From: Patescibacteria group bacterium
GTDB taxonomy: Bacteria; Patescibacteriota; Patescibacteriia; Patescibacteriales; JBAZCA01
NCBI GenBank assembly: GCA_041671125.1
Contig: JBAZCA010000001.1
Coordinates: 8,120-72,119, forward strand
Direction of reading: 5' to 3'
DNA: 64,000 bases
The translations under genes and the position numbers were made by a program. Positions 3,001 through 61,203 of the stretch are shown here, one piece after another; the stretch's first letter is position 1; each line of letters starts with the position of its first letter. The notes below the pieces were generated by a model. The model had not been told where the DNA came from. It ran no database searches and worked only from the letters and a program-made list of their open reading frames with translations.

Positions 3001-6000
3001 GACCGCGAGCGTTACCGGGATCCTAGGTTATGATCCGATGTCTAACAGCGCTAAATTCTCTCCGACTAACGCCTTAACGCCAAACACTGCTTACACTTTA
3101 ACCGTCCTTGGCAGTACCGGAGGCGTTGCTGATTTATCAGGCAATACCCTTTTAGCTGACCACATTATTACCTTTAAAACCGGATCAGCCGATACTGCCG
3201 CGCCAAAAGTCATGTTCGCGAACGGCGATGATTACCAGATCGCCCTGACTTTTTCCGAACCCATGAACGCCTCCTTGAAAACCGACACTGACAACTGGGC
3301 TTATTCGGTTTTAAATCCGGCTAATTTCTACGTTAACGCTTTAACTTCGGCTGACAATCCGGCTACCTGGGCCTCCACTCCGACCCTCACCGCCCCTTAT
3401 AATACCGGCACGGGAAATCAGGTCTCAGGACTATCAGGAGTTACGATTACTTATGATCAGACAACCCAGACCGCGATATTAAAAGGTTTTACTTTCCCGG
3501 CTTCAGGAGTTACCCATTTTCAGGTTTTCGCCGACAATGTTAAAGACAAATCCGGCAACGCGATCGGCGATTCCGGCGTCCGCGCTAAGCACTCGGGCGA
3601 TCCGACCTATGATGACGCGGTCGGCCATGACAACGGAGCCCGGGCGCCGATTCAATCCAGCTCCGGCACTTATGGCATGCTCGGACCGGGCGGCGGAGGC
3701 GGAATGATGATGTCCGGCGGCGGAGCTGGCGGAGCGGGAACAACATCAGGCGGCCCGAGCGGTATGGATATGGGAAAAATGGGTATGTTCAGCGCCGGAG
3801 CTTTTCCCATGAACGCCATGACCGGCCAGACTTCCAATTACTTTATTGATCTTCCGGTAACTAAGCCGCTCTCCGACGGCATGCTCATAACTATCACCTT
3901 CCCGACCGGATTTAATGTTTCGGCCGTTGCCAAAGATCCTTACTCGCCCGCCAATAATGACATGAATGATCGGGGCGCCGGAACAATCGGTTTTGACGCG
4001 GCATACGGGGTGGGCGGAGTCGCTTCCACCACACTGAATGTTGTCACCATGAAGCTTGATGTATCCGGAACCCCGAACGCGGCCGCCGGCCCGGATGGTT
4101 TTTATGATTTTCTTCATATTGATCTTAAAGGAGTAAAAAATTCCAATATTGCCAAAGATTTCGGCACTTCCGGCTATACGGCTGATATTAAAACCATGTC
4201 CGCCGACGGCTCGCTTTTGGAAAGTGTTACCACTATGCCCTTCTTTATCACCCAGGGCGGCTCTAATACGCTTACAGTCGTAGTAAACTGCGGCGACACT
4301 GATCAAGATACTGGAACAATGGCAACTTATCTTGGCTCGCCCATGACCGGACCGATGGAAGCGATTTCTTCCACTTTCACTAATGGTATTGCCACCTCCA
4401 CCTTTACCAATCTTTCGGCCGGCCAGTACATGCTCTTTACCGACCCGTTCCTTACTATCGGCGGCGCGAACTATTTAGGCAAACCCATGCCCGAAACCAT
4501 CCAAATTTCCGCGGCGACAGAGAAAAATATTACCATAGAAAAAGAAGGAGCCGGAGCCGGAAAAGCCGCGGTTACGGTTTATCTCTTCGGCGATTTTTCT
4601 ACTGATAGCGCGGCTGATGATGTAGATATATTTGCTAACTCGCCTTCAGGTTTCCGGGTAAAAACCCTTACTGATGTCGGCAGTACCAACCCGAATACCA
4701 CGCTTTACTTAACTGAAGGCGAATGGATGATGGGCGCCGGAATCGCCATGCCTAAAGGTCCGATGTCCGGGTCGCCTGCCAGCCCCGACTGGATGGAACC
4801 ACAAAAAGTCGGTGTTATAGTCGGGATTGAAACCGCGACCGGAAGAAATCTTGATCCTGACGGGGCGACTGACGCGGCCATTGGTAACACCCAGCCGGTG
4901 CTATTAACCGTCGCCAGCACCAATAACTTCAAAGTTGGGGATGTAATAACCTTCGCGACCGGAGCGGCCGCGGCCACCACTACGATTACATCTTTTGTCG
5001 CCAACACTTCCCTAACTTTTACTCCGCAAGGCAACTGGACGACCCTGCCGGCCGCTAACGACGTAATCACCTCAGTTCGCGAGCCTTCTAATGGCCCGAA
5101 TGACAAAAAAGTAAACTTTAATATTTCTACGCAGGCTACCAAGGAAATTAAAGGTTTTGTTTTAGATTCCGATGGCAGTGGAATCGGCAATGCCGAAATA
5201 TACGCTTATCAACCGCAAGGCTTTGGCGGCGGCAATACCACGGCTGATACTTCCGGTAAATTCACCTTAAAAATCGGGACTACCGGAGTCTGGACTATTG
5301 GCGCGTTTAAGCCGGGCATGCCGAGTTCCAAAGAAAAATCCGTTGAAGTAAAAGATAATACTATTGGAGGCGACGGCAATACCACGGCTGATATTTATCT
5401 TGATGGAACAATTATCCATGATGCTACAAATAATAATGCCGGAACAAATCCCTTAAGGCTTAAATTAAAACGGCCCGAATATACCATTTCCGGTAAAGTC
5501 CTTAATACCGGCGGCCAGTCAGTCCCCTACGCTCCGGTTTGGGCGTATCAGCCGACCGGGGGAGGACATTCCGATACTATGACTGACTCTTCCGGAAATT
5601 ACATATTGTACGTTGATGCCGGAACCTGGCGGATTGAAGCTGACGCGCCGAACGTCGGCTGGATGCAGTATTCGCCGGATGTTACTGTAAGCGCCGCTTC
5701 CCAATCCAATATTAATTTAAGGCCATCCGGTTCAGCCACTTATTACAGCGTATCCGGAACAATCACCATTGACGGCTCGGCTCAAAGTTATATTCCTCTT
5801 CGGGCCGCGCTCTACGACGCGAACGGCAATTACCAGGGCCGCGATTACGGCGCTTCAACCGATTCAAACGGCGGCTATACTCTGAGCCTGCCGGCGGGCT
5901 ATTACCGGATTGATACCTGGACCCAGAATTACGGCGAGGTGGAACTGGTTTATGATCAGGTGGCGAGTTCCCAGGCTAATATTAACGTCAACGCCGCGAC

Positions 6001-9546: not shown

Positions 9547-9595
9547 CATAACGCGTAACAAGAGAAAAAAATCGTTACGAGTTACGAGTTATGAG
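9547..9595. repeat. Heptamer-unit imperfect inverted repeat upstream of prfA
   Basis: cataacgcgtaac (9547-9559) faces cgttacgagttacgagttatgag (9573-9595). The right arm is GTTACGA, GTTACGA, GTTATGA in tandem. Confidence 0.7.
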
Positions 9596-11020: not shown

Positions 11021-11995
11021 ATGAAAAGCCAAAAAAAAATTCAAAGGACAAAGATTCCTCCCTTTGAACATGAGCTTATATTAGCACACATTCTTAATAA
11101 ATCAAGAGAGTGGGTTTTAACGCATCCTGAAGTTAAACTTACCAGAAGCCAGGCAAGAAGCTATAGGTTATATGTCGCGAGGAGACAAAAAGGCGAACCG
11201 CTCGCTTATATCCTCGGCCATAAGGGTTTTTACGGCCTGGACTTCATAGTCAATAAAAACGTCCTGGTTCCCCGCCCGGAAACCGAATTAATAATAGATT
11301 ACGTAACACATAACATAAAACACGAAACATCAGACAATATAGTTATTATTGACATAGGCACAGGCTCAGGATGCATCATCATCACCCTGGCTAAATTATT
11401 AAATCGCAAATCGCAAATCGCACCCGCCCGAACGCTTCAGGCGGGCGGGAATCGCAAATTCATTGCCACCGACATCTCTAAACCGGCTTTATTCGTCGCC
11501 CGCAAAAACGCCAAACAGCACGGCGTTGATAAGCAAATAAAATTTCTTCACGGCAATCTGCTAGAACCCGCATTATCCGAAATTAAAAAAAATAAATTGG
11601 AAATTGGAAATTGGAAATTGGAAATTCTCTGCAATCTTCCCTACCTAACTCCAGCGCAAATAAAAAATTCCCCTTCAATAAAACATGAACCGAGGTTGGC
11701 ATTAGCGGCGGGTCGTGACGGCCTTAAATATTACCGAGAGCTGTTTAAACAGATTAAATCGTTACGCGTTACGCGTTACGCGTTACGCGTATTATGTGAA
11801 ATAGATCCGAGGCAAAAACAGAAAATAACAGCTCTCGCGAAAAAATTCTTTCCCCGCTCCCGTCTCCAAATAAAAAAAGACCTCCGGGGTCATAGCAGGC
11901 TGTTAGTTATTAACTTATCACCAGATAACAATGTAGATTGTAGATTGGTAATTAAATCAGTCGTACCCCTGGACAGTATAGCCGTACGGCGCTAA
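11021..11995 (+). CDS. prmC: Release factor glutamine N5-methyltransferase (HemK/PrmC) carrying several in-frame heptamer-repeat insertions
   Basis: RRQKGEPLAYILGHKGFYGLDFIVNKNVLVPRPETELI, IIDIGTGSGCI, CNLPYL (NPPY-type motif IV), HEPRLALAAGRDGLKYYRE and DLRGHSRLLV are all present. The start is taken at ATG 11021 (MKSQKK); the upstream 48 codons of ORF 10877 overlap the opposite-strand ORF and look non-coding. The C-terminal ~25 aa probably run through a repeat and are extended. Confidence 0.85.
   Translation: MKSQKKIQRTKIPPFEHELILAHILNKSREWVLTHPEVKLTRSQARSYRLYVARRQKGEPLAYILGHKGFYGLDFIVNKNVLVPRPETELIIDYVTHNIKHETSDNIVIIDIGTGSGCIIITLAKLLNRKSQIAPARTLQAGGNRKFIATDISKPALFVARKNAKQHGVDKQIKFLHGNLLEPALSEIKKNKLEIGNWKLEILCNLPYLTPAQIKNSPSIKHEPRLALAAGRDGLKYYRELFKQIKSLRVTRYALRVLCEIDPRQKQKITALAKKFFPRSRLQIKKDLRGHSRLLVINLSPDNNVDCRLVIKSVVPLDSIAVRR
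11401..11461. repeat. Intragenic element: (AAATCGC)x3, a GC hairpin, then AATCGCAAATT
   Basis: The sequence is aaatcgcaaatcgcaaatcgca + cccgcccg aacgcttcagg cgggcggg + aatcgcaaatt. It is ~60 nt, in-frame within prmC, and encodes NRKSQIAPARTLQAGGNRKF. Confidence 0.8.
11594..11626. repeat. (AAATTGG) x ~4.7 tandem array inside prmC
   Basis: aaattggaaattggaaattggaaattggaaatt encodes KLEIGNWKLEI directly N-terminal to the catalytic NLPY motif. Confidence 0.9.
11761..11788. repeat. (GTTACGC) x4 tandem array inside prmC
   Basis: gttacgcgttacgcgttacgcgttacgc encodes (S)LRVTRYALRV. A further (TGTAGAT)x2 array lies at 11932-11952. Confidence 0.9.
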
Positions 11996-12463
11996 TTTTG
12001 TCCAGTCGTAATCTTTGCATTTACCCATGCCTTTATCCGAAGCCTGAGCCTCAAAATTAATCACCTGAAGGATGTAAAAAGATTTGGAACAGCCATAACT
12101 CCCATCGCTGAATTTTTGGTAGCGGTAAAAAGCCTTATCGTTGTTCAACGGGTCAAAAATAACCCTGTCAACAAGGCCCTCTTTTATTAACACCGGTAAA
12201 AAAGCGCTTTCTTTACCCCCAACGCCGTAGCTAACGTCCCAGCCTTTATAGTCATCGTCCGATTTCGGATAAACGCCGTGCTTATCGTGGTAAATATCCA
12301 GAGCCGTCATAAGAATCTGGATATCGGCTTTTCTTTTTACGTCCCTGGCTTTAGAGCGGTAATCGGAAAAATACGAGAATAAAATCGCCGCCAGACAAAT
12401 TATCATGACTGCCACCATCATCTTCTGCAGGTTGAAATAATTCAGGTTTACTCTTTCAAGCAT
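11957..12463 (-). CDS. Pilin/pseudopilin-like protein lacking a recognisable prepilin cleavage motif
   Basis: A hydrophobic N-terminal helix (MMVAVMIICLAAILFSYF) is followed by SKARDVKRKADIQILMTALDIYHDKHGVYP, the signature stretch of type IV pilin / GspG-like proteins. No G|FTLIE site is present. The start is moved to ATG 12463 because the first 8 codons of the ORF are encoded by the 12468-12527 hairpin repeat. Confidence 0.55.
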   Translation of the reverse strand: MLERVNLNYFNLQKMMVAVMIICLAAILFSYFSDYRSKARDVKRKADIQILMTALDIYHDKHGVYPKSDDDYKGWDVSYGVGGKESAFLPVLIKEGLVDRVIFDPLNNDKAFYRYQKFSDGSYGCSKSFYILQVINFEAQASDKGMGKCKDYDWTKLAPYGYTVQGYD

Positions 12464-12467
12464 AATA

Positions 12468-12527
12468 AGTAAATAGTAAATAGACAAAAGTAAATAGAAT
12501 TTTTCTGTTGTCTATTTACTATTTACT
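12468..12527. repeat. Perfect 20-bp inverted repeat built of AGTAAAT units
   Basis: agtaaatagtaaatagacaa (12468-12487) pairs with ttgtctatttactatttact (12508-12527) across a 20-nt loop. It lies between GT4 gene 12565..13728 and the pilin-like gene. Confidence 0.9.
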
Positions 12528-12564
12528 ATTGTCTCCTGTCCAAATTTAATTATAACACATTTCG

Positions 12565-14728: not shown

Positions 14729-14789
14729 AATTCATAATTCATAATTCATAATTCATAATTCATAATTCATAATTCATAATTCATAATTC
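14729..14789. repeat. (AATTCAT) x ~8.7 tandem array in the clpB 5' leader
   Basis: Eight perfect 7-nt units plus a partial unit lie between CIRCE and the clpB ATG (14812). Confidence 0.95.
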
Positions 14790-25420: not shown

Positions 25421-25428
25421 GTTATTAG

Positions 25429-25499
25429 AATTAAAAATTACGAATTACAAATTAAGATTTTATTACGACTCTTAATTTTTAATTCTTAATTTTTAATTT
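25429..25499. repeat. AATTNNN-unit inverted repeat between the aminotransferase and FemAB genes
   Basis: aattaaaaattacgaattacaaattaag faces cttaatttttaattcttaatttttaattta. The arms are AT-rich and complementary, with AATT recurring every 7 nt. Confidence 0.8.
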
Positions 25500-25536
25500 A
25501 TGATTCATCACCTCCGGCCTTTGCCATCCTTTCAAC

Positions 25537-26556: not shown

Positions 26557-26567
26557 GAATATGAATG

Positions 26568-26628
26568 ATAAGTAAGAAGTTAGAAGTTAGAAATTAGAAA
26601 TTTTTTCTTCTTACTTCTGACTTCTTAT
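26568..26628. repeat. AGAAGTN-unit hairpin overlapping the 3' end of the DegT-like gene
   Basis: aagtaagaag (26570-26579) pairs perfectly with cttcttactt (26607-16), flanked by agaagtt/agaaatt units. The last codons of ORF 26594..27871 (..KKSEVRRKNF*) are encoded by the right arm. Confidence 0.75.
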
Positions 26629-27871
26629 TAATCCACTGATTAACTACTTTTACCACCCGCCTTGCGTCACCTTCGCCCATATTTCTCCCGGTTGGCAAAT
26701 TAACGATCCGCGCGGCCAGCTTTTCGGCATTCGGACAGGCGCCGGGAGTATATCCGGATTTATCAATCGCCGAATCCCGCGGCGCGATTACGGCGTTATA
26801 CCAATCCCCTAAAATTATCTTATGCTTTTTCGCGTAATTCATCAATTCTTTCGGCTGGTCAATTAAAATCGGATAACGCAGATAAACGCATTCATCCTTA
26901 TTCGCGGCTTTAAGGAGCGGCTTTTTAATCTTTGCCGAAATTTCCGAGTCATACAAAGCAGCGATTTTTTTACGTTGTTCATTAACCGCGCCAACTTCCT
27001 TTAACTGTCCGAGTAAAATGTCGGCCAGGGCGTTCGGAAGGGTCCGGCTAAAAAGACTATCCCTTTCCCCCTGTTTTTCATTTCGGGTGATTATCCGGTT
27101 CACGAGATATATATTTTTCGCCAGCCATAAAATCGCTTTGCCAACAAAGACGCCGTATAAAGGTTTGCCGAGATAAAATACAGGAAAATGCAGGAGATGC
27201 CGGATTATATCTTTTACCGCGAGCGGTTTAAGGCCGGACTGATATTTTTCCAGCTTTTGGCCCAGTTCCGGATTGTCAGTTACGAGCGCCCCGCCCCGGA
27301 CGCAGGATAATATCTTATCGCTTCCGAAACTTAACATACCGATATCGCCGAATACGCCGGTCAATTTTTCGTTATGCCGCGCGCCGAATGAATGGGCGCA
27401 GTCTTCTATGATCTTTAAACCATGCTTTCGCGCGATGCCAATAATTTTTTCCAGTTCCGCCGGCAGTCCGTAAGTGTGCTGAATAATAACAACTTTCACT
27501 CTGGGAGTAATCTTTTTCTCCAAATCATTAACATCCATATTAAAATCATCACCCACGTCAACATACACCGGCATGGCTCCGGTCCACCGTATGGCGTTCG
27601 CCACAACCACGCAGGTATAAGCCTGGACTAAAACTTCATCTCCCTCTTTTATCTCCAGCGCTTTCAAAGCGAAATACAGGGCCGATCGTCCGCTGTCAAA
27701 AGTAACCGCCTGTTTAAGCCCAAAATATTTTTTCAGTTCCCTTTCCGCTTTTTCCACGTTTTCACCTTTCGCCAGATTTTTCCATTTCCACGGCAAACAA
27801 ATCCAGCCCAAAGCTTTTAGCGTATTCCGTCCCGTTAAATTCGGCGAGAAGCCGGTAAAGATGAATGACAT
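26594..27871 (-). CDS. DegT/DnrJ/EryC1/StrS-family sugar aminotransferase
   Basis: AVTFDSGRSALYFALKAL..GDEVLVQAYTCVVVANAI..IIEDCAHSFGA..MLSFGSDKILS contains the PLP-lysine motif. Confidence 0.85.
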   Translation of the reverse strand: MSFIFTGFSPNLTGRNTLKALGWICLPWKWKNLAKGENVEKAERELKKYFGLKQAVTFDSGRSALYFALKALEIKEGDEVLVQAYTCVVVANAIRWTGAMPVYVDVGDDFNMDVNDLEKKITPRVKVVIIQHTYGLPAELEKIIGIARKHGLKIIEDCAHSFGARHNEKLTGVFGDIGMLSFGSDKILSCVRGGALVTDNPELGQKLEKYQSGLKPLAVKDIIRHLLHFPVFYLGKPLYGVFVGKAILWLAKNIYLVNRIITRNEKQGERDSLFSRTLPNALADILLGQLKEVGAVNEQRKKIAALYDSEISAKIKKPLLKAANKDECVYLRYPILIDQPKELMNYAKKHKIILGDWYNAVIAPRDSAIDKSGYTPGACPNAEKLAARIVNLPTGRNMGEGDARRVVKVVNQWINKKSEVRRKNF

Positions 27872-28847: not shown

Positions 28848-28903
28848 ATTGACTTTTTGGAAATCATTTTCGTTAGAACAATGCTAAAGCCCGAGACTTA
28901 AAT

Positions 28904-28952
28904 AATTCATAATTCATAATTCATAATTCATAATTCATAATTCATAATTCAT
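28904..28952. repeat. (AATTCAT) x7 tandem array, same unit and strand as the clpB-leader array
   Basis: Seven perfect units. The array overlaps the stop codon region of ORF 28935..30800, whose C-terminus ..LELMNYEL* is repeat-encoded. Confidence 0.95.
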
Positions 28953-30902: not shown

Positions 30903-32924
30903 ATGCCTTTTATCGTTGCCTTGCCGATTCTCGCCATCATCTCCCTTGCTTCGCTTTTTGGCGGCCTGGTTTACTATTTTTACAGCCTGAACACGGCCGG
31001 AATAGCCCTTGCGGCCGTCCTAACAGCCTTTTCCGGCTGGAAACTGGTTAACCGCCTGATTAAAAACAATAAAAATCATGCTCCGAAAAATTTTTCAGCC
31101 ATAATTTCTAATGGCCATGAAGCCGCCAGCCGGAAAAAAATAAGCTGGATAGGATGTCTTAAAATCATTATCCCGTCGGCGCTTTACGCGGTTTTTTTCG
31201 GACTGGCAATTTTTACTCTTTTCACCAATCAAACCGACCGGGCCATAATCTCACCCTGGCAGGCGGCGCCAGCTTATTTTCTTGTTTACTATTTCTTAGC
31301 TACTTTGCTAATATTGCTTTTTATTGTCAAATCTAAAAAATTAAGAATTACAAATTACGAATTACAAATTTTTATTTTACTTCACTATTTACTATCTTTT
31401 TCCGTTGCTCTCGTAATTTATAAAATCGGTTACGGGTTTGATCCCTTTATCCATGGGGCGGCGCTGAAAGTAATTGACGCCAAAGGAATAATCGCGCCGA
31501 AAACTTTTTACTACTCGGGCTTTTACGGGCTGATAATCATTTTACACAAACTGCTATTCATCCCGATTAGCTGGATTAATAAATTATTAGTCCCGATTCT
31601 TTCGGCTCTAATACTGCCGCCGGTTTTAATAAACTCTTTTAAGAAAACCGGACACGCTAGCCCCCTCTTATCAGCCGTCCTTCTTCTTGCCATGCCTTTT
31701 TCTTTTCTGATCCTTACCACCCCCCAAAACCTGGCTTTTCTTTTTGCGCTGATAATAATTCTTTTCAGTTTAACGGCAAAAAATATCCTGGAGCATCTAA
31801 CGCTTCTGCTTTTCTCTTCCGCCGCTTTCATGATCCATCCCCTGGCCGGCATACCTTTGATCTTTTTTTCTTTAATCCGTTTTGTTAATTTTTTCGCCCA
31901 AGGAGGATTATCGGCCGACAAAAAATTAGCAAAATTTATCCCGTACAAAAAATATCTCAACTTTATTTTTTATTTCCTTTCGGCCGCGGCTCTTCCCCTG
32001 GCTTTTTACGTTTTTGAAAAAGGCCTAAGCGCTCCGGATACTGCCCCGCCCCGGGGAATAAAAACAATTTTAAGCGTTCTGGCAAAAAGCCTGAAAATTA
32101 GTTTCCCGAACCAGGAAAATATATTCCTTAACTTTTCTTATTTTATCGCCCAAAACGGATTAAAAATTTTTCTTATCCTCGCCGCCGCCGGGATTATTTA
32201 TGCTATCGCCAGGAGCCGGTTTCGGGAACTAAGAGATTATTTTTTTATGTCCGCTGGCCTTATTTTTTCTTATTTCCTGACCGAGGCGCTCTCTTTCAGC
32301 TTCTTAATAGATTACGAACGCTCGGCTTACTCGGAAAGGATTTTATTTTTATCCATGATGTTTTTAATGCCGTTCATTTTTTTACTGATAAAATGGTATC
32401 TTTCGCGGCTTGCGCTTTCCCGCGGACTCGCGTTTTACTCCGGTCTGGTATTTTCAGCCGCGCTCATAACCGCCTCACTCTATAATTCTTACCCGCGCTA
32501 CGACGCCTACTTTAATTCCCGCGGCTATTCAACCGGAAAATACGACCTCGCGGCCGTCCACTGGATTGAAGAAGACGCCAAGGGTAAATTTATCGTGCTC
32601 GCCAACCAGCAGGTCTCGGCCGGCGCGCTCCGCGAATTCGGTTTTAGTCATTATTACCAGGCTAAAAGCGGAGAAGAAATTTTTAATTACCCCATCCCGA
32701 CCGGCGGGAAATTATACCAGTATTATTTAAGCATGGTTTACGATAAGCCAACGCGCGTCCGGATGTCTAAAGCCATGAACCTGGCCGACGTTCAAACCGG
32801 CTATTTTGTTTTAAACAAATACTGGAATAACTTCCCTAAAGTGCTTGACGAAGCTAAGCTCTCAGCCGATTCATGGCAGAGTTTTGGGGAGGGAGAGGTG
32901 TGGGTGTTTAAATATAAAAAATAA
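30903..32924 (+). CDS. Large polytopic membrane protein of unknown function with a C-terminal soluble domain
   Basis: 673 aa with more than 12 hydrophobic segments. It is divergent from the GT-C-like gene and contains an in-frame AATTNNN array. Confidence 0.55.
   Translation: MPFIVALPILAIISLASLFGGLVYYFYSLNTAGIALAAVLTAFSGWKLVNRLIKNNKNHAPKNFSAIISNGHEAASRKKISWIGCLKIIIPSALYAVFFGLAIFTLFTNQTDRAIISPWQAAPAYFLVYYFLATLLILLFIVKSKKLRITNYELQIFILLHYLLSFSVALVIYKIGYGFDPFIHGAALKVIDAKGIIAPKTFYYSGFYGLIIILHKLLFIPISWINKLLVPILSALILPPVLINSFKKTGHASPLLSAVLLLAMPFSFLILTTPQNLAFLFALIIILFSLTAKNILEHLTLLLFSSAAFMIHPLAGIPLIFFSLIRFVNFFAQGGLSADKKLAKFIPYKKYLNFIFYFLSAAALPLAFYVFEKGLSAPDTAPPRGIKTILSVLAKSLKISFPNQENIFLNFSYFIAQNGLKIFLILAAAGIIYAIARSRFRELRDYFFMSAGLIFSYFLTEALSFSFLIDYERSAYSERILFLSMMFLMPFIFLLIKWYLSRLALSRGLAFYSGLVFSAALITASLYNSYPRYDAYFNSRGYSTGKYDLAAVHWIEEDAKGKFIVLANQQVSAGALREFGFSHYYQAKSGEEIFNYPIPTGGKLYQYYLSMVYDKPTRVRMSKAMNLADVQTGYFVLNKYWNNFPKVLDEAKLSADSWQSFGEGEVWVFKYKK
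31339..31373. repeat. AATTNNN x5 array inside the membrane-protein CDS
   Basis: aattaag aattaca aattacg aattaca aattttt encodes KLRITNYELQIF. Confidence 0.85.
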
Positions 32925-37354: not shown

Positions 37355-37362
37355 AAAGTAAT

Positions 37363-37439
37363 CAATTAGCAATTATCAATTACGAATTAAACCTTTTTTT
37401 TTAAAAAATTCGTAATTCGTAATTATTAATTTGTGATTG
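37363..37439. repeat. AATTNNN-unit inverted repeat between the flippase and GT4 genes
   Basis: caattagcaattatcaattacgaatt faces aattcgtaattcgtaattattaatttgtgattg across the centre aaaccttttttttttaaaaa. The right arm encodes the flippase C-terminus (..PITN*). Confidence 0.85.
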
Positions 37440-40393: not shown

Positions 40394-41212
40394 TTAATTT
40401 TTCTTCGGCCTTCCCCTTTTCTTCGATGATTCCTTAGCTTCCATTTCAACCGGGGCTTCTGATTCTTCTCCGCCGACTTCTTTTTCTGAAACGCCTTCAG
40501 TTTCCCCGATTTCGGCTATCACCGCTTCTTTGCCGATTAAAGCGTTAAATTGTTCGATTAATATTTTGGCTGATTGGGAAAAAGCTTCTTCCGGCTCTAT
40601 CGTTCCGTCGGTTTTTATGTCCAGTTTTAATTTTTCCCAGTTAGTCATCTTTCCGACGCGGATACTTTCAATGTCAATTCCGACCTTAACCACCGGAGTG
40701 AAAATTGAATCAATTTCAATGTAGCCAATTTCGGAATTTTTATTTTCTCTCACTTCAACCGGTTCATAGCCTTTGCCCTGGGCGACGTGGATTTCCATTT
40801 CCAGATTGCCGGCCATATCGGTAATATTGGCGATAACCATTTCCGGATTCATTATTTCAACCTGGCTGGATTTCGTTATGTCGCCGGCTTTGACTTTTTT
40901 CTCCCCGTGGACAGCGAGCTCAAGCTTAACCGGTTCTTCGGAAAATACCTTTAACCTTAATTTTTTTAAATTCAGGATGATTTCCAAGACATCCTCTTTA
41001 ACGTGCGGAAGCGGCATGAATTCGTGATCCGCCCCTTTTATTTTTACCCCGACAACAGCCGCGCCCGGCAAGCTGGAAAGAAGCACCCGGCGAAGCGAAT
41101 TGCCGATAGTAATTCCGAATCCCGGATAGCAAGGATAAATTGACGCCAATGATTCATGGGCTTCGGCGCCTTTGATAAATTTCACATTCTGGGGTAAAGC
41201 AATGGTTTCCAT
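40394..41212 (-). CDS. rpoA: DNA-directed RNA polymerase alpha subunit: NTD only, with a C-terminal acidic linker plus AT-hook instead of the alpha-CTD
   Basis: The NTD is present (GFGITIGNSLRRVLLSSLPGAAVVGVKI..VEH EF pattern, here GADHEF). The protein is only 272 aa and ends ..EAVIAEIGETEGVSEKEVGGEESEAPVEMEAKESSKKRGRPKKN*. No LELSVRS/helix-hairpin-helix CTD sequence is present, and rplQ follows after 54 nt. Confidence 0.9.
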   Translation of the reverse strand: METIALPQNVKFIKGAEAHESLASIYPCYPGFGITIGNSLRRVLLSSLPGAAVVGVKIKGADHEFMPLPHVKEDVLEIILNLKKLRLKVFSEEPVKLELAVHGEKKVKAGDITKSSQVEIMNPEMVIANITDMAGNLEMEIHVAQGKGYEPVEVRENKNSEIGYIEIDSIFTPVVKVGIDIESIRVGKMTNWEKLKLDIKTDGTIEPEEAFSQSAKILIEQFNALIGKEAVIAEIGETEGVSEKEVGGEESEAPVEMEAKESSKKRGRPKKN

Positions 41213-41301
41213 AGATATAAGTCCAAAAGTCCAAAGTCCAAAAGTCTAATATAATTCACCTGACTTTCTGACTTTATGACTATCTGACTGATTGGCTTAT
41301 G
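41213..41301. repeat. AGTCCAA / TGACTNT periodic complementary repeats in the rpoA-rpsD gap
   Basis: agtccaaaagtccaaagtccaaaagtc is followed by cctgactttctgactttatgactatctgactg. AGTC and GACT recur with a 7-8 nt period on opposite arms. Confidence 0.75.
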
Positions 41302-48726: not shown

Positions 48727-48754
48727 AATAAATAAAAGTTAAGTTGTGAATTAC

Positions 48755-48859
48755 CAATGATCAATGATCAATTTTCAATGAATTTTCAATGATTCAATGA
48801 TAAAATTTTCAAACGTTTGGAAATTGAAAATTGATTAATTGAAAATTCATTGATCATTG
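48755..48859. repeat. About 105-nt imperfect palindrome of CAATGAT/AATTTTC units in the ftsI-murF gap
   Basis: caatgatcaatga (48755-48767) pairs perfectly with tcattgatcattg (48847-48859). Internally, aattttcaat pairs with attgaaaatt. The centre is aaacgttt. Confidence 0.85.
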
Positions 48860-48879
48860 TAAATTGATAATTGATAATT

Positions 48880-50904
48880 TTATTTAACTTCTCTTACTGT
48901 CGGCACTTTATAATAATGTAAAATATACTCGGCAATCTCCCCGAATAAGGGCGCGGCCGACGACTCGGCCCATTCTACGTCTCGCGGATGATCTATCTTA
49001 ACTATCATGACGAATTTCGGCTCATCAGCCGGAGCATAACCCGCAAAAGAGCCTACATGCGAATTGGCTTCATACCCGCGCCCGTCGCTTCTCGGAACCT
49101 GGGCGGTTCCTGTTTTACCGGCCACCCAGTAGCCCTTTACCCCGGCCTGTTTACCGTGGCCGTTTTCCACAACATTCACCATCATCCCGCCAAGAAGAGC
49201 CGCCGCCCGTTCAGAAATAACCCGGCGGATTTCTTTGGCTCCGGCGGCTATTCTTTCCCCATTTGGCCGGATTACTTCTTCAACAATGTAAGGCTTCATT
49301 AAGACGCCCCCGTTGGCGATCGCGGCGTATGCCGCGACCATCTGAAGAGGAGTAACGCTTATTCCCTGGCCAAAAGAGGCGGTAGCCGCGTAGAGCTCTT
49401 TGTTTTCTTTTAAGACCAGATTACCGATTTCGCCTTTTCCTTCCGCCGACAGCTCAATGCCGGTCCGCTCGCCAAAACCAAAATTTTTAACATAATCGGC
49501 AAAAACCCCAGGCCCGGTTTTTCTCATAACAAATATTACGCCGGTGTTTAATGATTGTTCAAGCACTGTATTCATGGTACATTCTCCATGGGCTTTCAAA
49601 TCCGAATTTTTTATTTCATAATTAGCAATTTTTACCACTCCCGAGTCAATATAAGTCGTCTCCGGAGTTATTTTTTTCTGATCCAGACCGGCAGCCATAG
49701 TAATTACCTTAAAAATTGAACCCGGCTCATAAAGGCCAAAAACACCGGAATTGTTATAATATTTTATGTCGCTTATTTCTTTATAGTTGTTAGGATCAAA
49801 ATCCGGGGAAGAACACATAGCGATTACCCGGCCGGTTTCCGGCTCAATAATTATCACCGAGCCTCCGTCGGCACCGTGGCGCGCCACTGCGGCGTTTAAT
49901 TTATCGCAGGCGGCAAACTGGATATTACGGTCAATAGTTAAAACCAAGTCGGCCCCCGGTTCCGGGCGGGTGAATTCCCGGTCATTAATGATTATAAGGT
50001 CGCCTGAAGCGTCCCGTTCCGTTTTTAGCGATCCTGGCTTTCCGGAAAGCTCTTCGTTAAAAAACTCCTCTAGCCCGTAACGGCCTTCTTTTTTTTTCCC
50101 TTCATAACCGACAAAGCCGAGAATATTCGCGCCCGTGTTTCCTTCCGGGTAATAACGGAATGTTTCCATTGCATGCCCGAATCCCGGAAGAGAAAATTCC
50201 GACTCCTTTTTATCGACGGCGATATAAACCTTATTATTTTTTATTTTAAGCTTGTCATCGCCCATATCCAACCCATCGCTCCGCGCCAGAGCGAGGTAAA
50301 TCTTTATAAGATCTTCTTCTTCTACTTTGTTTTTAATCGGTTCATAAGGATCATTTTCTTTTTCAAGAATTTTAGCGTAACTGGCGATCCCTTTTTTTGC
50401 GCGCTCTTCAAGTTCAAGGTCCCTTTTGATTCTTAAAAATTCCTCTTCGATTTTTTCTCCCGATTCTTCTTTCTCTTTTTTAAATTTTTTCGTAAGCTGG
50501 TCAGTTTTCTCTTCATCTTTTGCCCGGTCAAAATAATCATAAATTACTTTAGCTTTTTCCTCAACCTTATTCGCGGGGATTTCCGCCGGTTTGGCGTAAA
50601 AAAGGGCGAACTCCTTGTTAGTCGCCACCGGGTAAAGCTCTTTATTCCCGCCCTCTCCGCTGTCTTCTATAAAAATCCTTCCCCTATCCGGCTCCAGCTC
50701 GCGAAAAACTTCATGCTGACCGGCCGCCAAAGCCGAGTAATAATCTTTTTGTAAAACCTGGAGATAAAAAATTTTGTAGAGCAGGCCGCCGGCCAATAAA
50801 AAAATAATCGCCAGGAGAAAATTCGCGCGATTATTTTTTTCCGCCGTTCCTTTCCTGCACGAACGGATCATCCGTGAATTTTTGTTTTTCTTCCAGGGCT
50901 TCAT
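48880..50904 (-). CDS. ftsI: Class B penicillin-binding protein (FtsI/PBP2-type transpeptidase)
   Basis: It has an N-terminal TM anchor and the motifs SxxK (PGSIFKV), SxN (EQSLNTG) and KTGT (AGKTGTAQV). A Lys/Glu-rich insertion lies in the N-terminal domain. Confidence 0.88.
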   Translation of the reverse strand: MKPWKKNKNSRMIRSCRKGTAEKNNRANFLLAIIFLLAGGLLYKIFYLQVLQKDYYSALAAGQHEVFRELEPDRGRIFIEDSGEGGNKELYPVATNKEFALFYAKPAEIPANKVEEKAKVIYDYFDRAKDEEKTDQLTKKFKKEKEESGEKIEEEFLRIKRDLELEERAKKGIASYAKILEKENDPYEPIKNKVEEEDLIKIYLALARSDGLDMGDDKLKIKNNKVYIAVDKKESEFSLPGFGHAMETFRYYPEGNTGANILGFVGYEGKKKEGRYGLEEFFNEELSGKPGSLKTERDASGDLIIINDREFTRPEPGADLVLTIDRNIQFAACDKLNAAVARHGADGGSVIIIEPETGRVIAMCSSPDFDPNNYKEISDIKYYNNSGVFGLYEPGSIFKVITMAAGLDQKKITPETTYIDSGVVKIANYEIKNSDLKAHGECTMNTVLEQSLNTGVIFVMRKTGPGVFADYVKNFGFGERTGIELSAEGKGEIGNLVLKENKELYAATASFGQGISVTPLQMVAAYAAIANGGVLMKPYIVEEVIRPNGERIAAGAKEIRRVISERAAALLGGMMVNVVENGHGKQAGVKGYWVAGKTGTAQVPRSDGRGYEANSHVGSFAGYAPADEPKFVMIVKIDHPRDVEWAESSAAPLFGEIAEYILHYYKVPTVREVK

Positions 50905-51338: not shown

Positions 51339-51358
51339 AAAATAAAAATTTCCAATTT

Positions 51359-52318
51359 TTAATTTTTAATTTTTAATTTTTCCGCCGCTCTTAGCTTAGC
51401 GCTTCGGGCGCGCGGATTATTTTTAATCTCTTCGTTCGACGGGACAATGACTTTTTTAGTAAGTATTTTTAAATCGGCTTTTTCGTTATCCTCTTTTTCG
51501 CCGTATTTTGACCGTTTTGAAACCTTTCCCGCGTTTTCCTTAAAAAACCTTTTTACTATCCGGTCTTCAAGGCTATGGTAGGAAATAACCACCAGCCTGC
51601 CGCCTTCCTTTAAAAGCGAAATTGCCTCGGGCAGGGCTTCGCTTAAAGCCCCCAGTTCATCATTTGTCGCGATGCGCAAAGCCTGAAAAGTTTTTGTCGC
51701 CGGATGAATTTTTCCTCTCCGGTAAAAGGCCGGCACTGCCGCGTTTATTATCTCAACCAATGCGCCGACGGTTTTTATTTTTTCTTTTTTTCTTTTCTCA
51801 GTAATCTTTTCGACAATCCGCCAGGCAAACCTTTCTTCGCCATATTCTTTAAATATCCGCGCCAGCTCATCCTTTGGCCGACTGTTGACTATGTTCTCCG
51901 CTGTCTCAAGCGTTTTGCCAAAAGCCATGTCTAGTCCAGCTTCAGCCATTTTAAAAGAAAAACCTCCGGTTTCACGCGCGAGCTGAGCGCTTGATAGACC
52001 AAGATCAAATACAATGCCGTCAAACTTAACGCCTGGCTCAGGGAAATTCTTTTTAATAATAATCGGTAAATTCCTGAAATTCGCATGAGATAAGAATGAA
52101 TTTTTAATTTTTAATTTTTCAATTTTTAATTTGGCGTTCTCTATGGCCAGCTCATCAGCGTCAATGGCCAGAACTTTTCCTTTTTCGCCAACCTTATCCG
52201 CGATAGCCCCCGTATATCCTCCTCCCCCCAAAGTGCAATCAATATAGTAACCGCCTTTTTTTATATTCAGGTATTCCAGCGCTTCGCTTAACATTACCGG
52301 CGTGTGATGATATTCCAT
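51359..52318 (-). CDS. rsmH: 16S rRNA (cytosine1402-N4)-methyltransferase RsmH/MraW
   Basis: HTPVMLSEALEYL..YIDCTLGGGGY..DLGLSSAQL..GFSF..LDMA..SYHSLEDRIVKRFF. It contains an in-frame AATTTTT array (52099-52134, LKIEKLKIKN) and a repeat-encoded C-terminus (KLKIKN*). Confidence 0.92.
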   Translation of the reverse strand: MEYHHTPVMLSEALEYLNIKKGGYYIDCTLGGGGYTGAIADKVGEKGKVLAIDADELAIENAKLKIEKLKIKNSFLSHANFRNLPIIIKKNFPEPGVKFDGIVFDLGLSSAQLARETGGFSFKMAEAGLDMAFGKTLETAENIVNSRPKDELARIFKEYGEERFAWRIVEKITEKRKKEKIKTVGALVEIINAAVPAFYRRGKIHPATKTFQALRIATNDELGALSEALPEAISLLKEGGRLVVISYHSLEDRIVKRFFKENAGKVSKRSKYGEKEDNEKADLKILTKKVIVPSNEEIKNNPRARSAKLRAAEKLKIKN

Positions 52319-52382
52319 TTAATTTTTAATTTTTAATTTTGTAATTTTTAAAAATTCAAAAATTATAAAATTAAAAATTCTC
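52319..52382. repeat. AATTTTT/AAAAATT-unit inverted repeat in the mraZ-rsmH gap
   Basis: aatttttaatttttaattttgtaattttt faces aaaaattcaaaaattataaaattaaaaatt. Confidence 0.85.
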
Positions 52383-52814
52383 TCATACTCCCAATTCTCC
52401 CATCGCCTCCGCGATATCGTTACTCGCCGCTTCAGTTCCCTTTTTAAATTTCTCCCAGGCTTCTTCATCCCAGATTTCCAGCCGGTCGTATAATCCGGCA
52501 ACTATGGCTTTCTTTTTCAGGCTCGCGTATTTTCTTAAGTATTCCGGCAGGACGATCCGGCCCTGCGAATCAAAATCAACATCCATGGCGCCGGCGAGCA
52601 TAAGGCGGGCAAAGGCTCTGGCTTTGGCCTGCGAAATCGGCAGAGCCGCCAATTTTTTCGCCAGTTCGGCCCAGGCGTCTTTCGGATAAAGGGAAAGCGA
52701 ATTATCCAGCCCCCGGGTAACGACCGCGCCTTTTTTCAATAGCGCCCTGAACTTAGCCGGTATGGCCATCCGTCCTTTGTCGTCTATGTTGTGGCTGTAT
52801 TCACCTATGAACAT
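52383..52814 (-). CDS. mraZ: Transcriptional regulator MraZ
   Basis: MFIGEYSHNIDDKGRMAIPAKFR.. and a second SpoVT-AbrB-like half, VDFDSQGRIVLPEYLR. The start is taken at ATG 52814; the 30 upstream codons of ORF 52904 are non-homologous. Confidence 0.9.
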   Translation of the reverse strand: MFIGEYSHNIDDKGRMAIPAKFRALLKKGAVVTRGLDNSLSLYPKDAWAELAKKLAALPISQAKARAFARLMLAGAMDVDFDSQGRIVLPEYLRKYASLKKKAIVAGLYDRLEIWDEEAWEKFKKGTEAASNDIAEAMGELGV

Positions 52815-53205: not shown

Positions 53206-53697
53206 TATCGTAATATTAGGTTCTTTATCATATTCTGGAGCAACAATATCAAAGTCAAATTTGGAATTTAGAATTTGCTTGCCCCTCGGAGCCTTGGCGA
53301 AGTGGGGGAATTTGGAATTTTTGCTTCCCGTCAGAACATTAATCATGCCATCTTCACTTATCCCCACGACAGGCACATTCAAAGCATATCCCAAAGCGTT
53401 CGCGGTCGCCACCCCAATCCGGAGCGAAGTAAATGTCCCGCCGCGATTTACGACTTCAATCATGGTTATAAAGCCGTAATTCTTAATTCTTAATTCATAA
53501 TTCTTCTTCTTTTTCGCGATTTCCGTTATTTTGCGCTTATAACTGTTTAAAACAGAATCAATGAGCGGTAACAACTTCTCCGCCTGCTGATATCGCGCTT
53601 TAATTATTTTTTTTACAATCACCTTCCCTACCGCGTCCAACAAAGCCGCTTCAATTTCGGTGGAATTATTTTTAATGGTGTTGATGCGGAGGATCAT
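53194..53697 (-). CDS. tsaB: tRNA threonylcarbamoyladenosine biosynthesis protein TsaB-like (short, N-terminal domain only)
   Basis: It begins MILRINT, contains QQAEKLLPLIDSVL, and has GGTFTSLRIGVATANALGYALNVPVVGIS (compare GPGSFTGLRIG..A.gLa..l.iP..gvs). An in-frame AATTCTT/AATTCAT array at 53478-53505 encodes KNYELRIKNYG. Confidence 0.7.
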   Translation of the reverse strand: MILRINTIKNNSTEIEAALLDAVGKVIVKKIIKARYQQAEKLLPLIDSVLNSYKRKITEIAKKKKNYELRIKNYGFITMIEVVNRGGTFTSLRIGVATANALGYALNVPVVGISEDGMINVLTGSKNSKFPHFAKAPRGKQILNSKFDFDIVAPEYDKEPNITIRNT

Positions 53698-57820: not shown

Positions 57821-59056
57821 TTAACTATTCATTAAGCCGGAATAAACAGCTGAAATTTCACTCATATAGTTCTCCGCGTTCATGCCTTTCACGGTCTTCG
57901 CGGCGTTAGTCTCTATTTTTAAATTTTCGCCAGCGTCCAATTCAGTAAGCTTGGCGGCCAGATCATCCGCGCTACCGGTTTTAAACAAAAGGCCGTTCTG
58001 GCCGTGTTTTATAATTTCGGCTATTCCGCCGATATTGGAAGCAATAACTATTTTTCCGGCCGCTAAGGACTCAAGCAGGGCAAACGGCATGTTCTCCGGC
58101 CAAAGAGACGGAATGATTACGGCCTTAGCGCCAATGATTAATCGCTTTAATTCATCGCCATATTTCGGACCAAGCAGTTCCGCGCTGTCATTTAATTCTA
58201 AATTCTTAATTCTTAATTCTAAATTCTCTTTATCCGGCCCGCTTCCGGCGATTTTTAACTTTAAATTCAGGCCTCTTGTTTTAGCAATTACTAAAGCTTC
58301 CATAAGCGTGTCAATTCCCTTTTCTTTTGAGAGCCGTCCAAAATACAAGAGGTAATCTTTTTTTTCATTTCCCGCGGGCGCTTTCCAGCTTTCCTGATTA
58401 ACAAAATTGTTTATGACTTTTACTTTTTCTTCTTTAATCCCCGATGAAACAATTATATTTTTTATAAACCGGCTCGGAGCTATGAAAAGATCAATTTTAG
58501 AATAGGATTTTAATACGTGGCGTTGAAAATACGCCTCAAACGCCGCCAAAAAACTTTTTACGTAAGAATTTTTTACGCATTTGCCAAAAAAACAATTATA
58601 ATATTTTCCGCCGACGCATTTATCGCAATACTTATTTTTATTAAACAGCTTGTAGTTCGGGCAGGTGAGCTTATAGTCATGCAAAGTCATCACCGTAGGG
58701 ATCCCCCGCTTTTTTAATTCATGGATTATTGACGGGCTTAAGTGATGATAAATATTATGGAGATGGGCGATGTCGGGATTAAATTCTTTTAACAGCTCTT
58801 TTAATTTTTTCCGCGCCTGACAATTATAGAAAATATTTAAAGCCGCGCTGATTTTGCCGGCCGGAGCCAGCCGACCGTCAGTCTCAGAGTCTTTCGCGAA
58901 AAACCGGGACCAGCCGGAAAATATGTTTCTCGCACTAAACATGGAAAAATACGCGACTTCATGGCCATTTTTTTCAAGAATTTTTCCGGTATCAAGGTAA
59001 GACCTTTCCGCGCCGCCCCTTAAATAATGATAATTGTTTATTAAAAGAATTTTCAT
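57821..59056 (-). CDS. Glycosyltransferase family 4
   Basis: MKILLINNYHYLRGGAERSY and the C-terminal PSLWPENMPFALLESLAAGKIVIASNIGGIAEII. An in-frame AATTCTN array at 58194-58230 encodes LELRIKNLELN. Confidence 0.85.
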   Translation of the reverse strand: MKILLINNYHYLRGGAERSYLDTGKILEKNGHEVAYFSMFSARNIFSGWSRFFAKDSETDGRLAPAGKISAALNIFYNCQARKKLKELLKEFNPDIAHLHNIYHHLSPSIIHELKKRGIPTVMTLHDYKLTCPNYKLFNKNKYCDKCVGGKYYNCFFGKCVKNSYVKSFLAAFEAYFQRHVLKSYSKIDLFIAPSRFIKNIIVSSGIKEEKVKVINNFVNQESWKAPAGNEKKDYLLYFGRLSKEKGIDTLMEALVIAKTRGLNLKLKIAGSGPDKENLELRIKNLELNDSAELLGPKYGDELKRLIIGAKAVIIPSLWPENMPFALLESLAAGKIVIASNIGGIAEIIKHGQNGLLFKTGSADDLAAKLTELDAGENLKIETNAAKTVKGMNAENYMSEISAVYSGLMNS

Positions 59057-60164: not shown

Positions 60165-60196
60165 TTCTTACCAGATATGGTTATTAACCAGACCCT

Positions 60197-60224
60197 GTTA
60201 TGTGTTATGTATTATGTGTTATGT
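60197..60224. repeat. (GTTATGT) x4 array overlapping the 3' end of radical SAM gene 2
   Basis: gttatgt gttatgt attatgt gttatgt encodes the C-terminal ..HITHNT* on the minus strand. Confidence 0.85.
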
Positions 60225-61203
60225 GTTTTATTTTTTCTTTCGCAATCCACATCCCCGCCCGGAACCAATGTTTCTTAATCGCCGGTTTGGCAGTACAGAC
60301 CATCCAGCAGGGCGTCGGGCATTTTTTAACTTTCATCCGAATTTTCTTTGCTTTTTCTCCTTCCCATATTTCCTGAAAACTTTGTCCGCTTAAATTGCCG
60401 GCCTTATCGCTTAAAATATTGCAGGGATAAATATTTCCTTCCGGATCCATGAAAAACGAGCCGCAAAGCGCGTCGCAAGGGAGAAGCGCCCGGCCGATAT
60501 TGACATAATAGACCATGCCGCGCATGTAATAGCATTTTCCCAATTCGGCCGGTTTGAATGATTTTATTTTCCGGCTTATTTCTCCTTTGAGCTGCTTCTC
60601 GATTTCGGCTTTTTCCGTTCCCTGATTGCTGTCGGTGGAAAAATAATTATCGCTGTTATGAGCGACGGTAATGCCTAGGTTCACGCCTTCCGCGCGACAG
60701 AATTCCGCTACTTTCTCGTATTGGCTTTCATTACCGGCCATGAATGTGAACCCGGCGCCGATATTTTTAAAACCGATCTTTTTTAAGCGCGACACGGTGT
60801 CTTTAACCATGCCGAAAGCGCCAGGTATTCCTCTTATTTCATCATGAATTTTCCCGATCCCGTCAATGGATACGGCAATGGTTACACGATCAGAATAATT
60901 TTTCTTCAAAATCTCTTTGGTGATTCTTTCAATCAAATCCGAAAGATAACCGTTAGTGGAAATAACCACGCGGCTCGGTTTTACTTCCCTAAAAATCACG
61001 TCTAAAATTTTCAGGATATCATTCCTTAAAAATGGCTCACCGCCGGTAATATTAATATCATCAAGGCTTTTTGGCAGTCGTCCGTAAACTTCCGGACTAA
61101 GCTCTTTACCGGGCGTCATCTTCCAGATATTACACATCCTGCAGCGGGAATTGCATTTATAGGTTATGGCAATTACCGCTGATTTAGGATCATTTAAAAA
61201 CAT
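60205..61203 (-). CDS. Radical SAM / SPASM-domain protein (2 of 3)
   Basis: ITYKCNSRCRMCNIW, ITGGEPFL, and the C-terminal CDALCGSFFMDPEGNIYPC..KKCPTPCWMVC. Confidence 0.85.
   Translation of the reverse strand: MFLNDPKSAVIAITYKCNSRCRMCNIWKMTPGKELSPEVYGRLPKSLDDINITGGEPFLRNDILKILDVIFREVKPSRVVISTNGYLSDLIERITKEILKKNYSDRVTIAVSIDGIGKIHDEIRGIPGAFGMVKDTVSRLKKIGFKNIGAGFTFMAGNESQYEKVAEFCRAEGVNLGITVAHNSDNYFSTDSNQGTEKAEIEKQLKGEISRKIKSFKPAELGKCYYMRGMVYYVNIGRALLPCDALCGSFFMDPEGNIYPCNILSDKAGNLSGQSFQEIWEGEKAKKIRMKVKKCPTPCWMVCTAKPAIKKHWFRAGMWIAKEKIKHITHNT

Follow-up and report, generated by a model that had tools for sequence, protein, structure and literature searches.

How can a housekeeping gene carry several tandem arrays of a 7-nucleotide (nt) unit, a length that is not a multiple of three, and remain open? 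The question is raised by prmC, the gene for the release-factor glutamine N5-methyltransferase (HemK/PrmC), in a 64-kb stretch of DNA (positions 8,120 to 72,119 of contig JBAZCA010000001.1, assembly GCA_041671125.1), which we call the window and which is the only 64 kb of this genome that our genome-wide statements cover. The public annotation of the exact PrmC protein refers it to a metagenome-assembled genome of the Patescibacteria (Candidate Phyla Radiation, CPR), and orthologs with 40-60% identity belong to Falkowbacteria- and Moranbacteria-like genomes. A preliminary description of the window had placed heptamer arrays at four positions in prmC and in four other genes. All of them were found in place or within a few bases, array 4 of prmC ending at 11947 rather than at 11952, and the occurrence of period-7 arrays in coding genes is confirmed. 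We consider it probable that these arrays are the coding subset of a genome-wide population of heptanucleotide repeats, produced by 7-nt misalignment and subject to strong filtering by reading frame, stop codons and protein structure. In this role they represent tolerated rewriting of peptide loops and a mutational hazard, not a switch.

The prmC gene is a single intact open reading frame (ORF) whose true start is the ATG at 11021, rather than the GTG at 10877. Its product matches T. maritima HemK with an E-value of 1.6e-24 and keeps every residue that is invariant in the clade, including GTGSG and NLPY. The latter stands in place of NPPY throughout this clade and is therefore not a sign of decay. 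The preliminary description had allowed that the host genes might be pseudogenes; for prmC we rejected this possibility, since all invariant residues are present and the structural model (AlphaFold, mean pLDDT 86) is confident. Judging from the sequence, PrmC would have retained its function despite the insertions. When aligned with T. maritima HemK (1NV8), array 1 together with a hairpin nested in it corresponds to a 16-amino-acid (aa) gap, and array 2 to a gap of 6 aa. In the AlphaFold model, from which all structural positions are taken, the array 2 peptide forms the loop 190-198 and the initial residues of strand beta4, which carries NLPY, while the array 3 peptide forms a loop and the beginning of strand 255-260 (Table 1). 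The proposal that the host tolerates extra peptides at permissive positions fits this model well, the predicted locations being loops, a helix end and the first residues of strands. The 3′ ends of the prmC arrays encode residues that are conserved among orthologs (N-x-K-F, K-x-I-I, and those preceding LCEID), so that the arrays look like local tandem duplications of a native seed; for array 1, the seed is likely its 3′ part, AATCGCAAATT. Gain or loss of one unit in any of arrays 1-3 would truncate PrmC at 155-261 aa.

Array 4 is of a different kind. When one of its units is removed in silico, a stop codon returns after ...NNVDW, which makes the current 13-aa tail of PrmC the product of a frameshift. 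Most likely, to judge from the reading frames, the ancestral stop was lost when the array gained a single unit, at a position where a shift of frame does no harm; the AlphaFold model predicts a disordered tail. The initial claim that all arrays preserve the frame needs correction for array 4, which most likely shifted it. Frameshifting gains of one unit were encountered in non-coding DNA and, within coding DNA, solely at the very C-terminal end of PrmC. Because of the frameshifted tail, prmC overlaps the 3′ end of a convergent 176-aa pilin-like gene by 39 nt (11957-11995).

The arrays recur in relatives. Among 47 prmC orthologs for which DNA was available and period-7 DNA was marked, 60 of 62 arrays fall at six recurrent sites (A to E and the C-terminus; Table 1), and the frame is kept at all 62. 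The lengths of sites B-E vary widely, and the spread of the orthologs with 40-60% identity from 272 to 377 aa is due to insertions at few positions. At a given site the units mostly differ among orthologs; shared units are GTTAYGC at site E, common to the window and loci L085, L081 and L087 (L numbers designate loci of other genomes), and AATTGGR at site D, common to the window and L003. Among relatives, array-rich genomes are interleaved with array-free ones. As a separate observation, in the prmC-bearing relatives (loci L081-L135) arrays tend toward genomes of ~38-50% GC and are mostly absent at 31-37% GC, even though the units are 75% A+T.

Arrays are also far too numerous for chance. Using Tandem Repeats Finder and exact-run scans, 17 exact period-7 arrays were located in the window, compared to 0.27 expected from dinucleotide shuffles (~60-fold), with other periods of 2-15 near zero. 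A second, mismatch-tolerant period-7 detector yielded 22 arrays, seven of them ORF-internal and the other 15 located in spacers or at the ends of ORFs, giving a density of 2.5 per kb in intergenic DNA vs. 0.12 per kb in coding DNA (21-fold). In the window, a start codon follows nearly all of the non-coding arrays at a distance of 0-55 nt, and in six cases the array provides, or directly adjoins, the stop codon of the gene before it. In a wider set of 466 kb, comprising the window and related CPR loci, there were 99 period-7 arrays vs. 9-33 for each of periods 5, 6, 8, and 9. By location, 62 of the 99 lay within ORFs, 22 at the edges of ORFs and 15 between genes; the 99 arrays were built from 65 distinct units that include the families AATTNNN and GTTAYGN. 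What the preliminary description missed is this mainly intergenic nature, along with the fact that heptanucleotide repeats are a known class. A scan of species-representative genomes for prmC, in which the listed matches were mostly from distant phyla, served as a control set only; among the control loci listed, richness in period-7 arrays occurs sporadically in unrelated phyla, namely in a proteobacterium, a Chloroflexi genome and a Saganbacteria genome. The window also contains a GC-richer ORF of 2,897 aa (74-8767) that is without heptamer arrays and may differ in origin from the rest.

Seven intercistronic spacers of the window consist of an array followed by its own reverse complement, forming long, near-perfect, AT-rich hairpins with z-scores of -3.2 to -8.7. 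Since they have neither a GC-rich stem nor a T-tract, they are not classical terminators. Inverted pairs were also seen in two unrelated heptamer-rich genomes, in a proteobacterium of 65% GC (L069, 1344-1499, 2955-3089, and 9808-9952) and in a Chloroflexi genome (L039, 10385-10449 and 11616-11693), in both cases with an AGTGAnT...AnTCACT layout, which suggests a generating process shared across phyla.

In coding DNA, arrays show the marks of selection on length and on stop codons. Exact coding runs comprise 21-27 matched positions, equivalent to one seed plus three units (+21 nt, 7 aa), and none is longer, vs. non-coding runs of up to 44 and 54 matched positions. With mismatches tolerated, 47 of 62 coding arrays have spans of 19-29, compared to 19 of 37 non-coding ones (Fisher p = 0.016), and the variance of the span is 31 in coding and 84 in non-coding arrays (Levene p = 0.027). 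Coding arrays do not exceed 4.9 units, and only seven of the 62 are perfect over at least 21 nt. Every 21 nt, a heptamer array is read in each of the three phases, which brings any stop triplet of the cyclic unit into frame once. In agreement with this constraint, none of the seven perfect coding arrays has a sense-strand stop in any phase, and the two longest arrays (AATTCAT, 8.7 and 7.3 units), which have stops on both strands, are both non-coding. In the tsaB-like array, ATGAATT replaces AAGAATT exactly where a TAA would have arisen; in the rsmH array, the TAA is broken by an extra G. All of the array-bearing host ORFs are open, and their Pfam domains run across the arrays. Relative to T. 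thermophilus RsmH, the rsmH array adds a net 4 aa, and the array of the TsaB-like protein sits in a stretch ~17 residues longer than in YeaZ structures; in the GT4 protein the length is unchanged relative to the Pfam profile.

Table 1. Heptamer arrays, hairpins and related features of the window, and recurrent array sites in prmC orthologs (dG, folding free energy; z, z-score).
Feature	Position	Strand	Remarks
prmC (HemK/PrmC)	11021..11995	+	324 aa, intact, one ORF
Array 1, 5′ part, (AAATCGC)x3.1	11401..11422	+	encodes N128-A134, C-terminal end of helix alphaA
GC-rich hairpin, CCCGCCCG-N11-CGGGCGGG	11423..11449	+	27 nt; 8-bp stem, 11-nt loop; nested in array 1
Array 1, 3′ part, AATCGCAAATT	11450..11460	+	encodes N144-F147, native N-x-K-F opening strand beta2
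Array 2, (AAATTGG)x4.7	11594..11626	+	perfect; encodes KLEIGNWKLEI, residues 192-202
Catalytic NLPY motif	11633..11644	+	clade-invariant NPPY variant, two codons 3′ of array 2
Array 3, (CGTTACG)x4.4	11760..11790	+	perfect; encodes SLRVTRYALRV, residues 247-257
Array 4, (TGTAGAT)x2.3	11932..11947	+	one-unit gain, PrmC C-terminus
prmC site A			helix before RRxKGEP; 8 arrays
prmC site B			linker before GTGSG; 15 arrays
prmC site C			after TLAKLL; window array 1; 11 arrays
prmC site D			before NLPY; window array 2; 18 arrays
prmC site E			after FKQIK; window array 3; 6 arrays
prmC C-terminus site			2 arrays
AATTACR array, 673-aa membrane protein	31339..31370	+	imperfect; encodes RITNYELQI
AAAAATT array, rsmH	52099..52132	-	encodes KLKIEKLKIKN; extra G disrupts in-frame TAA
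AAGAATT/ATGAATT array, tsaB-like gene	53477..53503	-	encodes KNYELRIKNY; in-frame TAA mutated to TAT
AGAATTN array, GT4 Glycos_transf_1 domain	58194..58227	-	encodes ENLELRIKNLEL
(GTTACGA)x3.1	9574..9595		7 nt upstream of prfA start; GTTAYGN unit family, as array 3
(AATTCAT)x8.7, longest array	14729..14789		intergenic, 23 nt upstream of clpB-like start; stops on both strands; unstructured
(ATAATTC)x7.3	28902..28952		gives stop of 621-aa glycosyltransferase-like gene; 55 nt upstream of next start
AATTTTT array	51347..51381		gives rsmH stop codon; 9 nt upstream of next gene
TGTTATG array	60196..60240		gives stop of radical-SAM gene
Inverted pair (AGTAAAT)n / (CTATTTA)n	12460..12540		~27-bp hairpin, dG -27.9, z -8.5
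Inverted pair of AATTAnn arrays	25422..25505		hairpin, z -6.4
Inverted pair AAGTTAG / CTTCTTA	26562..26632		hairpin, z -7.7; holds stop of DegT-like gene
Inverted pair CAATTAN / AATTCGT	37355..37436		hairpin, z -3.2
Inverted pair AAGTCCA / CTGACTT	41212..41295		hairpin, z -3.2
Long inverted pair, CAATGAT/AATTGAA-type arrays	48745..48885		141-nt hairpin, dG -44.4, z -8.7
Inverted pair TTTAATT / AAAAATT	52312..52385		directly upstream of rsmH start; 22-bp hairpin, z -6.3

The rsmH gene and its flanks (51347-52385) hold four AAAAATT/AATTTTT arrays within 1 kb. One of them gives the rsmH stop codon, one lies inside the gene, and the other two pair into a hairpin bordering on both the rsmH start and the stop codon of the ORF upstream.

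The mechanism that we favor would begin with a process at the DNA level that works in a 7-nt register and duplicates a short local sequence head to tail, most likely through strand misalignment (slippage) during replication or repair. Slippage may be favored on AT-rich heptamers containing AATT and near hairpin-forming spacers. Selection then acts as a filter, leaving coding arrays that are rarer, expanded by 21 nt, and either free of stops or with the stop mutated away. In PrmC, the 3′ unit keeps the native residues at the start of a strand, and the additional units extend the loop or the end of the helix before it. Arrays recur at these permissive sites in orthologs, frequently with other units, which suggests arrays that "breathe"; in such a cycle, arrays would contract and re-expand in frame-preserving steps, with perfect arrays being regenerated from whichever unit remains.

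Several observations weigh against slippage followed by selection as a complete account. In 45 of 47 orthologs, site A spans exactly 41 residues, and it aligns without gaps to T. maritima HemK, but period-7 DNA covers 17-35 nt of this length-constant site in eight orthologs, and the GT4 array is likewise length-neutral. Plain +21-nt slippage is insufficient for such arrays unless accompanied by a precisely compensating deletion. The initial view of the arrays as insertions applies to the lineage-specific segments that produce the 16- and 6-aa gaps in HemK, but not to the arrays of site A and GT4. The consensus unit bears a stop in 27 of the 55 imperfect coding arrays, and in these cases a clean in-frame gain of three units would not have been viable at birth. 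The mode of one seed plus three units is present outside ORFs as well (19 of 37), indicating that it may be intrinsic to the generating process and not due to selection. Unit sequences are restricted, too. Identical units are shared between unrelated loci at 1.19% vs. 0.14% for random genomic 7-mers (8.5-fold, with 0 of 200 simulations reaching the observed value), AATT occurs in 41 of 99 units vs. 8.4 expected, the units are 75% A+T, and identical units cluster within 1.5 kb (8% vs. 1.2%). The restricted unit family and its local recurrence hint at sequence specificity or at copying between sites. In addition, inverted pairs are frequent among the intergenic arrays, which slippage alone does not predict. 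Finally, no array indel was found in the strain-level pairs L095/L096, L122/L123, and L159/L160, which hold few arrays, and a second assembly, identical over 3,975 nt, contained no copy-number variants in that stretch, although these data are thin. One of these pairs provided an observation of another sort: at L122 6719-6762, compared to L123 (contigs 99.4% identical), a segment that includes a short hairpin (GTAGGGGCACAAC...GTTGTGCCCCTAC) and is bounded by AATTTAAATTC inverted repeats lies in the opposite orientation, resembling a small element of the invertible or flip-flop type.

An active or mobile origin is a serious rival, if an unlikely one. Conceivably, the arrays derive from, or form part of, small elements that are mobile or actively "written", either foldback elements resembling miniature inverted-repeat transposable elements (MITEs) or the 7-nt target-duplication footprints left by hairpin insertion and excision, which would have spread to nearby sites by copying or gene conversion. 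The restricted unit family with its locally clustered identical units, the length-neutral arrays and the patchy distribution of array-rich and array-free relatives are all in keeping with such an origin, as is the mode of about four units even outside ORFs, which recalls the 49 four-heptamer elements of G. metallireducens. Terminal inverted repeats are present in the seven inverted-pair spacers, and in L069 and L039. However, with 65 units in 99 arrays and spacers that have no sequence in common, there is no multi-copy element, and near-identical copies with target-site duplications, as expected of foldback or MITE-like elements, were not found; no flanking duplications were recognized in a search that was not exhaustive. 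The native, conserved residues at the 3′ ends of the prmC arrays are what local duplication predicts. No transposase is linked to the arrays, though none was searched for. A related possibility, which we entertain with similar reserve, is that an unrecognized sequence-biased activity, whether an enzyme or a minimal mobile element, writes and disperses arrays as modules of about four units. Such an activity could overwrite coding sequence length-neutrally and mirror arrays into inverted pairs.

The GC-rich hairpin in array 1 bears on the same alternative. Excising its 27 nt leaves a perfect 33-nt (AAATCGC)x4.7 array, which indicates that the hairpin is a separate, frame-preserving insertion into array 1; an insertion accompanied by a duplication of 7 nt would be equivalent, as the periodic context masks the difference. 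Its peptide, PARTLQAGG (P135-G143), is a loop with pLDDT <50 in the AlphaFold model. Hairpins with the termini CCYGCCCG...CGGGCRGG are conserved in four genomes and were found in coding DNA of L161 (1299-1327, prmC site C), L100 (1103-1138, site E), and L126 (1298-1333, another gene). Conserved termini within the site C arrays of both the window and L161, where the hairpin is flanked by a 9-nt direct repeat, favor a mobile element; yet the hairpin occurs only once in the 64 kb, and in just one of the 22 window arrays. Related but less similar GC-rich hairpins lie at prmC site C of L162 and L163, and L129 contains a related, perfect 30-nt palindrome (1971-2000). GC-rich hairpins or palindromes of 27-36 nt are thus seen in-frame in CPR coding DNA, several of them within heptamer arrays at the same prmC loop. 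Restoration of the period-7 register upon deletion is not a general rule among them, being perfect only for the window hairpin, and a looser search for GC islands returned mostly terminators. In an Rfam scan of the window the hairpins matched no RNA family, the one match being a tRNA gene (24096-24166, minus strand). In L163 (~640-760, prmC of P0065), we also noted a long palindrome, GTCAGAATCCCCCGCCGA/TCGGCGGGGAGATTCTGAC, flanked by an apparent duplication of ~17 residues of a KFLxGxLLxP segment. Small dispersed repeats of Nostoc are reportedly hairpin insertions of 21-27 nt, some of them in tandem heptamers, which would parallel the 27-nt hairpin nested in array 1; the latter is single-copy in the window.

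Rickettsia palindromic elements are dispersed sequences of ~100-150 bp with a conserved sequence. The preliminary description had likened the arrays to in-frame insertions of this type, and the two do have in common that extra peptides are tolerated at surface positions. The comparison fails for the arrays themselves, which are non-palindromic, have units that differ by site and no conserved sequence, end in native residues at the 3′ side and are apparently generated locally. The 27-nt hairpin, which is palindromic and frame-preserving and has conserved termini, is the sole part of the finding that resembles these elements.

Compared with slippage under selection, the remaining explanations fare poorly. 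Phase variation, in which one-unit slippage would toggle prmC, rsmH, tsaB, and other genes as contingency loci, was raised at the outset as on/off switching, and we regard it as very improbable. A one-unit change does truncate PrmC, arrays 2 and 3 are perfect and hence slippable, and the long arrays upstream of start codons (14729 and 28902) could modulate expression. Nevertheless, the genes concerned encode PrmC, RsmH, a TsaB-like protein, a GT4 and the 673-aa membrane protein and are housekeeping genes, unlike the surface, lipopolysaccharide (LPS) or restriction genes for which an on/off state is adaptive; long uninterrupted tracts are lacking, since no coding array exceeds 4.9 units and the majority are broken up by point changes that stabilize them; the density of arrays in coding DNA is far below that in intergenic DNA; and both the frame at all ortholog arrays and the sequence of the second assembly are unchanged. 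We give equally little credence to the idea that seven-residue peptides such as KNYELRI, RVTRYAL, and LEIGNWK were selected as functional protein modules, with the DNA period being secondary. The same peptides do recur across proteins and genomes, and their alternating hydrophobic/polar pattern suits strands and helices, but selection on protein predicts a 21-nt period and not exact 7-nt identity over three phases. Moreover, the same unit is read on both strands (KNYELRI vs. NSKFLIL), the same units are commoner in non-coding DNA, and disorder is predicted for the hairpin and tail segments; protein-level selection was accordingly rejected as the source of the periodicity. A search with the chimeric KNYELRI/NSKFLIL peptide against a database of 5.8 billion proteins, which only five tiny ORFs passed, was uninformative because short low-complexity matches cannot reach significance. 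Assembly or sequencing artefacts, which short repeats can cause in metagenomes, were rejected as practically negligible, given arrays far shorter than a sequencing read, long ORFs that stay open, homologous sites in dozens of independent assemblies and identity in the second assembly.

Repeats of this class are known from other bacteria. Heptamers are the most abundant class of long simple sequence repeats (SSRs) in many bacteria, an excess tentatively ascribed to the length of DNA held by the polymerase, or its footprint (Mrazek, 2007, as summarized in PMC4692102 and PMC4679880). Known cases include the short tandemly repeated repetitive (STRR) sequences of cyanobacteria (Mazel, 1990), GGGAATC in Xanthomonas and GGGGAYT in Nostoc (Rehm, 2015, PMC4692102), and an inverted-pair layout has been reported for the Xanthomonas arrays (PMC4692102). 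The arrays described here resemble long heptanucleotide SSRs in their head-to-tail 7-nt units, an excess specific to period 7, sporadic phylogeny, mainly intergenic location, occasional convergent inverted pairs, and variation in length and sequence among relatives. They differ from known SSRs and STRRs in their patescibacterial host, in having units that are AT-rich and AATT-centered instead of G-rich, in the use of many units vs. one or three, and in a notable in-frame fraction in housekeeping genes at recurrent sites. The genome of G. metallireducens contains 49 elements of four tandem heptanucleotides (GGACCGG), within and between genes (Aklujkar, 2009, PMC2700814). The mode of about four units is similar; in Geobacter, however, a single GC-rich unit has been read as regulatory RNA, whereas dozens of AT-rich units are filtered by frame and stop codons here. 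For the TAACTGA repeats of marine Beggiatoaceae, cyanobacteria, and Bacteroidetes, the possible location and orientation are constrained by stop codons in every phase (MacGregor, 2015, PMC4679880). These repeats likewise lie a few nt upstream of start codons, are limited by stop phase and at times form seven-residue repeats within ORFs, but one heptamer is favored and the in-ORF hosts are mostly hypothetical proteins, vs. many units and conserved enzymes in our case. The contingency loci of Haemophilus and Neisseria also have SSRs in or near ORFs with a unit that is not a multiple of three; there, tracts are long, the hosts are surface, LPS or restriction genes and switching is documented, in contrast to the short, interrupted, coding-depleted arrays in housekeeping genes seen here. 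Unlike in-frame variable-number tandem repeats (VNTRs) or Borg-type repeats, the unit of 7 nt keeps the frame only in +21-nt steps. In full-text searches of one literature library, we came across no account of repeats like these in CPR/Patescibacteria, or of in-frame arrays that recur in housekeeping enzymes. While the repeat class itself is known, the observations that are new concern the recurrence at hot spots, the AATT bias and the length-neutral arrays.

These results identify the odd low-complexity peptides in conserved CPR enzymes (KNYELRI, RVTRYAL, and KLKIKN) as by-products of a process at the DNA level. The arrays set many stop codons, gene starts and C-terminal tails, so gene calling and alignment should allow for steps of 7 aa at certain loop sites. 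With six sites and 60 arrays in 47 orthologs, they also provide a natural map of the positions at which PrmC tolerates insertions, as well as a clean display of how frame and stop codons constrain a repeat unit that is not a multiple of three. Why bacteria prefer 7-nt units has been a question since 2007, and CPR genomes, being small and densely sampled in metagenomes, are well suited to testing slippage against an active mechanism by means of the length-neutral arrays, the AATT bias and the inverted pairs. If a writing machinery does exist, it could underlie the heptamers of cyanobacteria, Xanthomonas, Geobacter, and Beggiatoaceae, and it would continually remodel the loops of core proteins in CPR bacteria.

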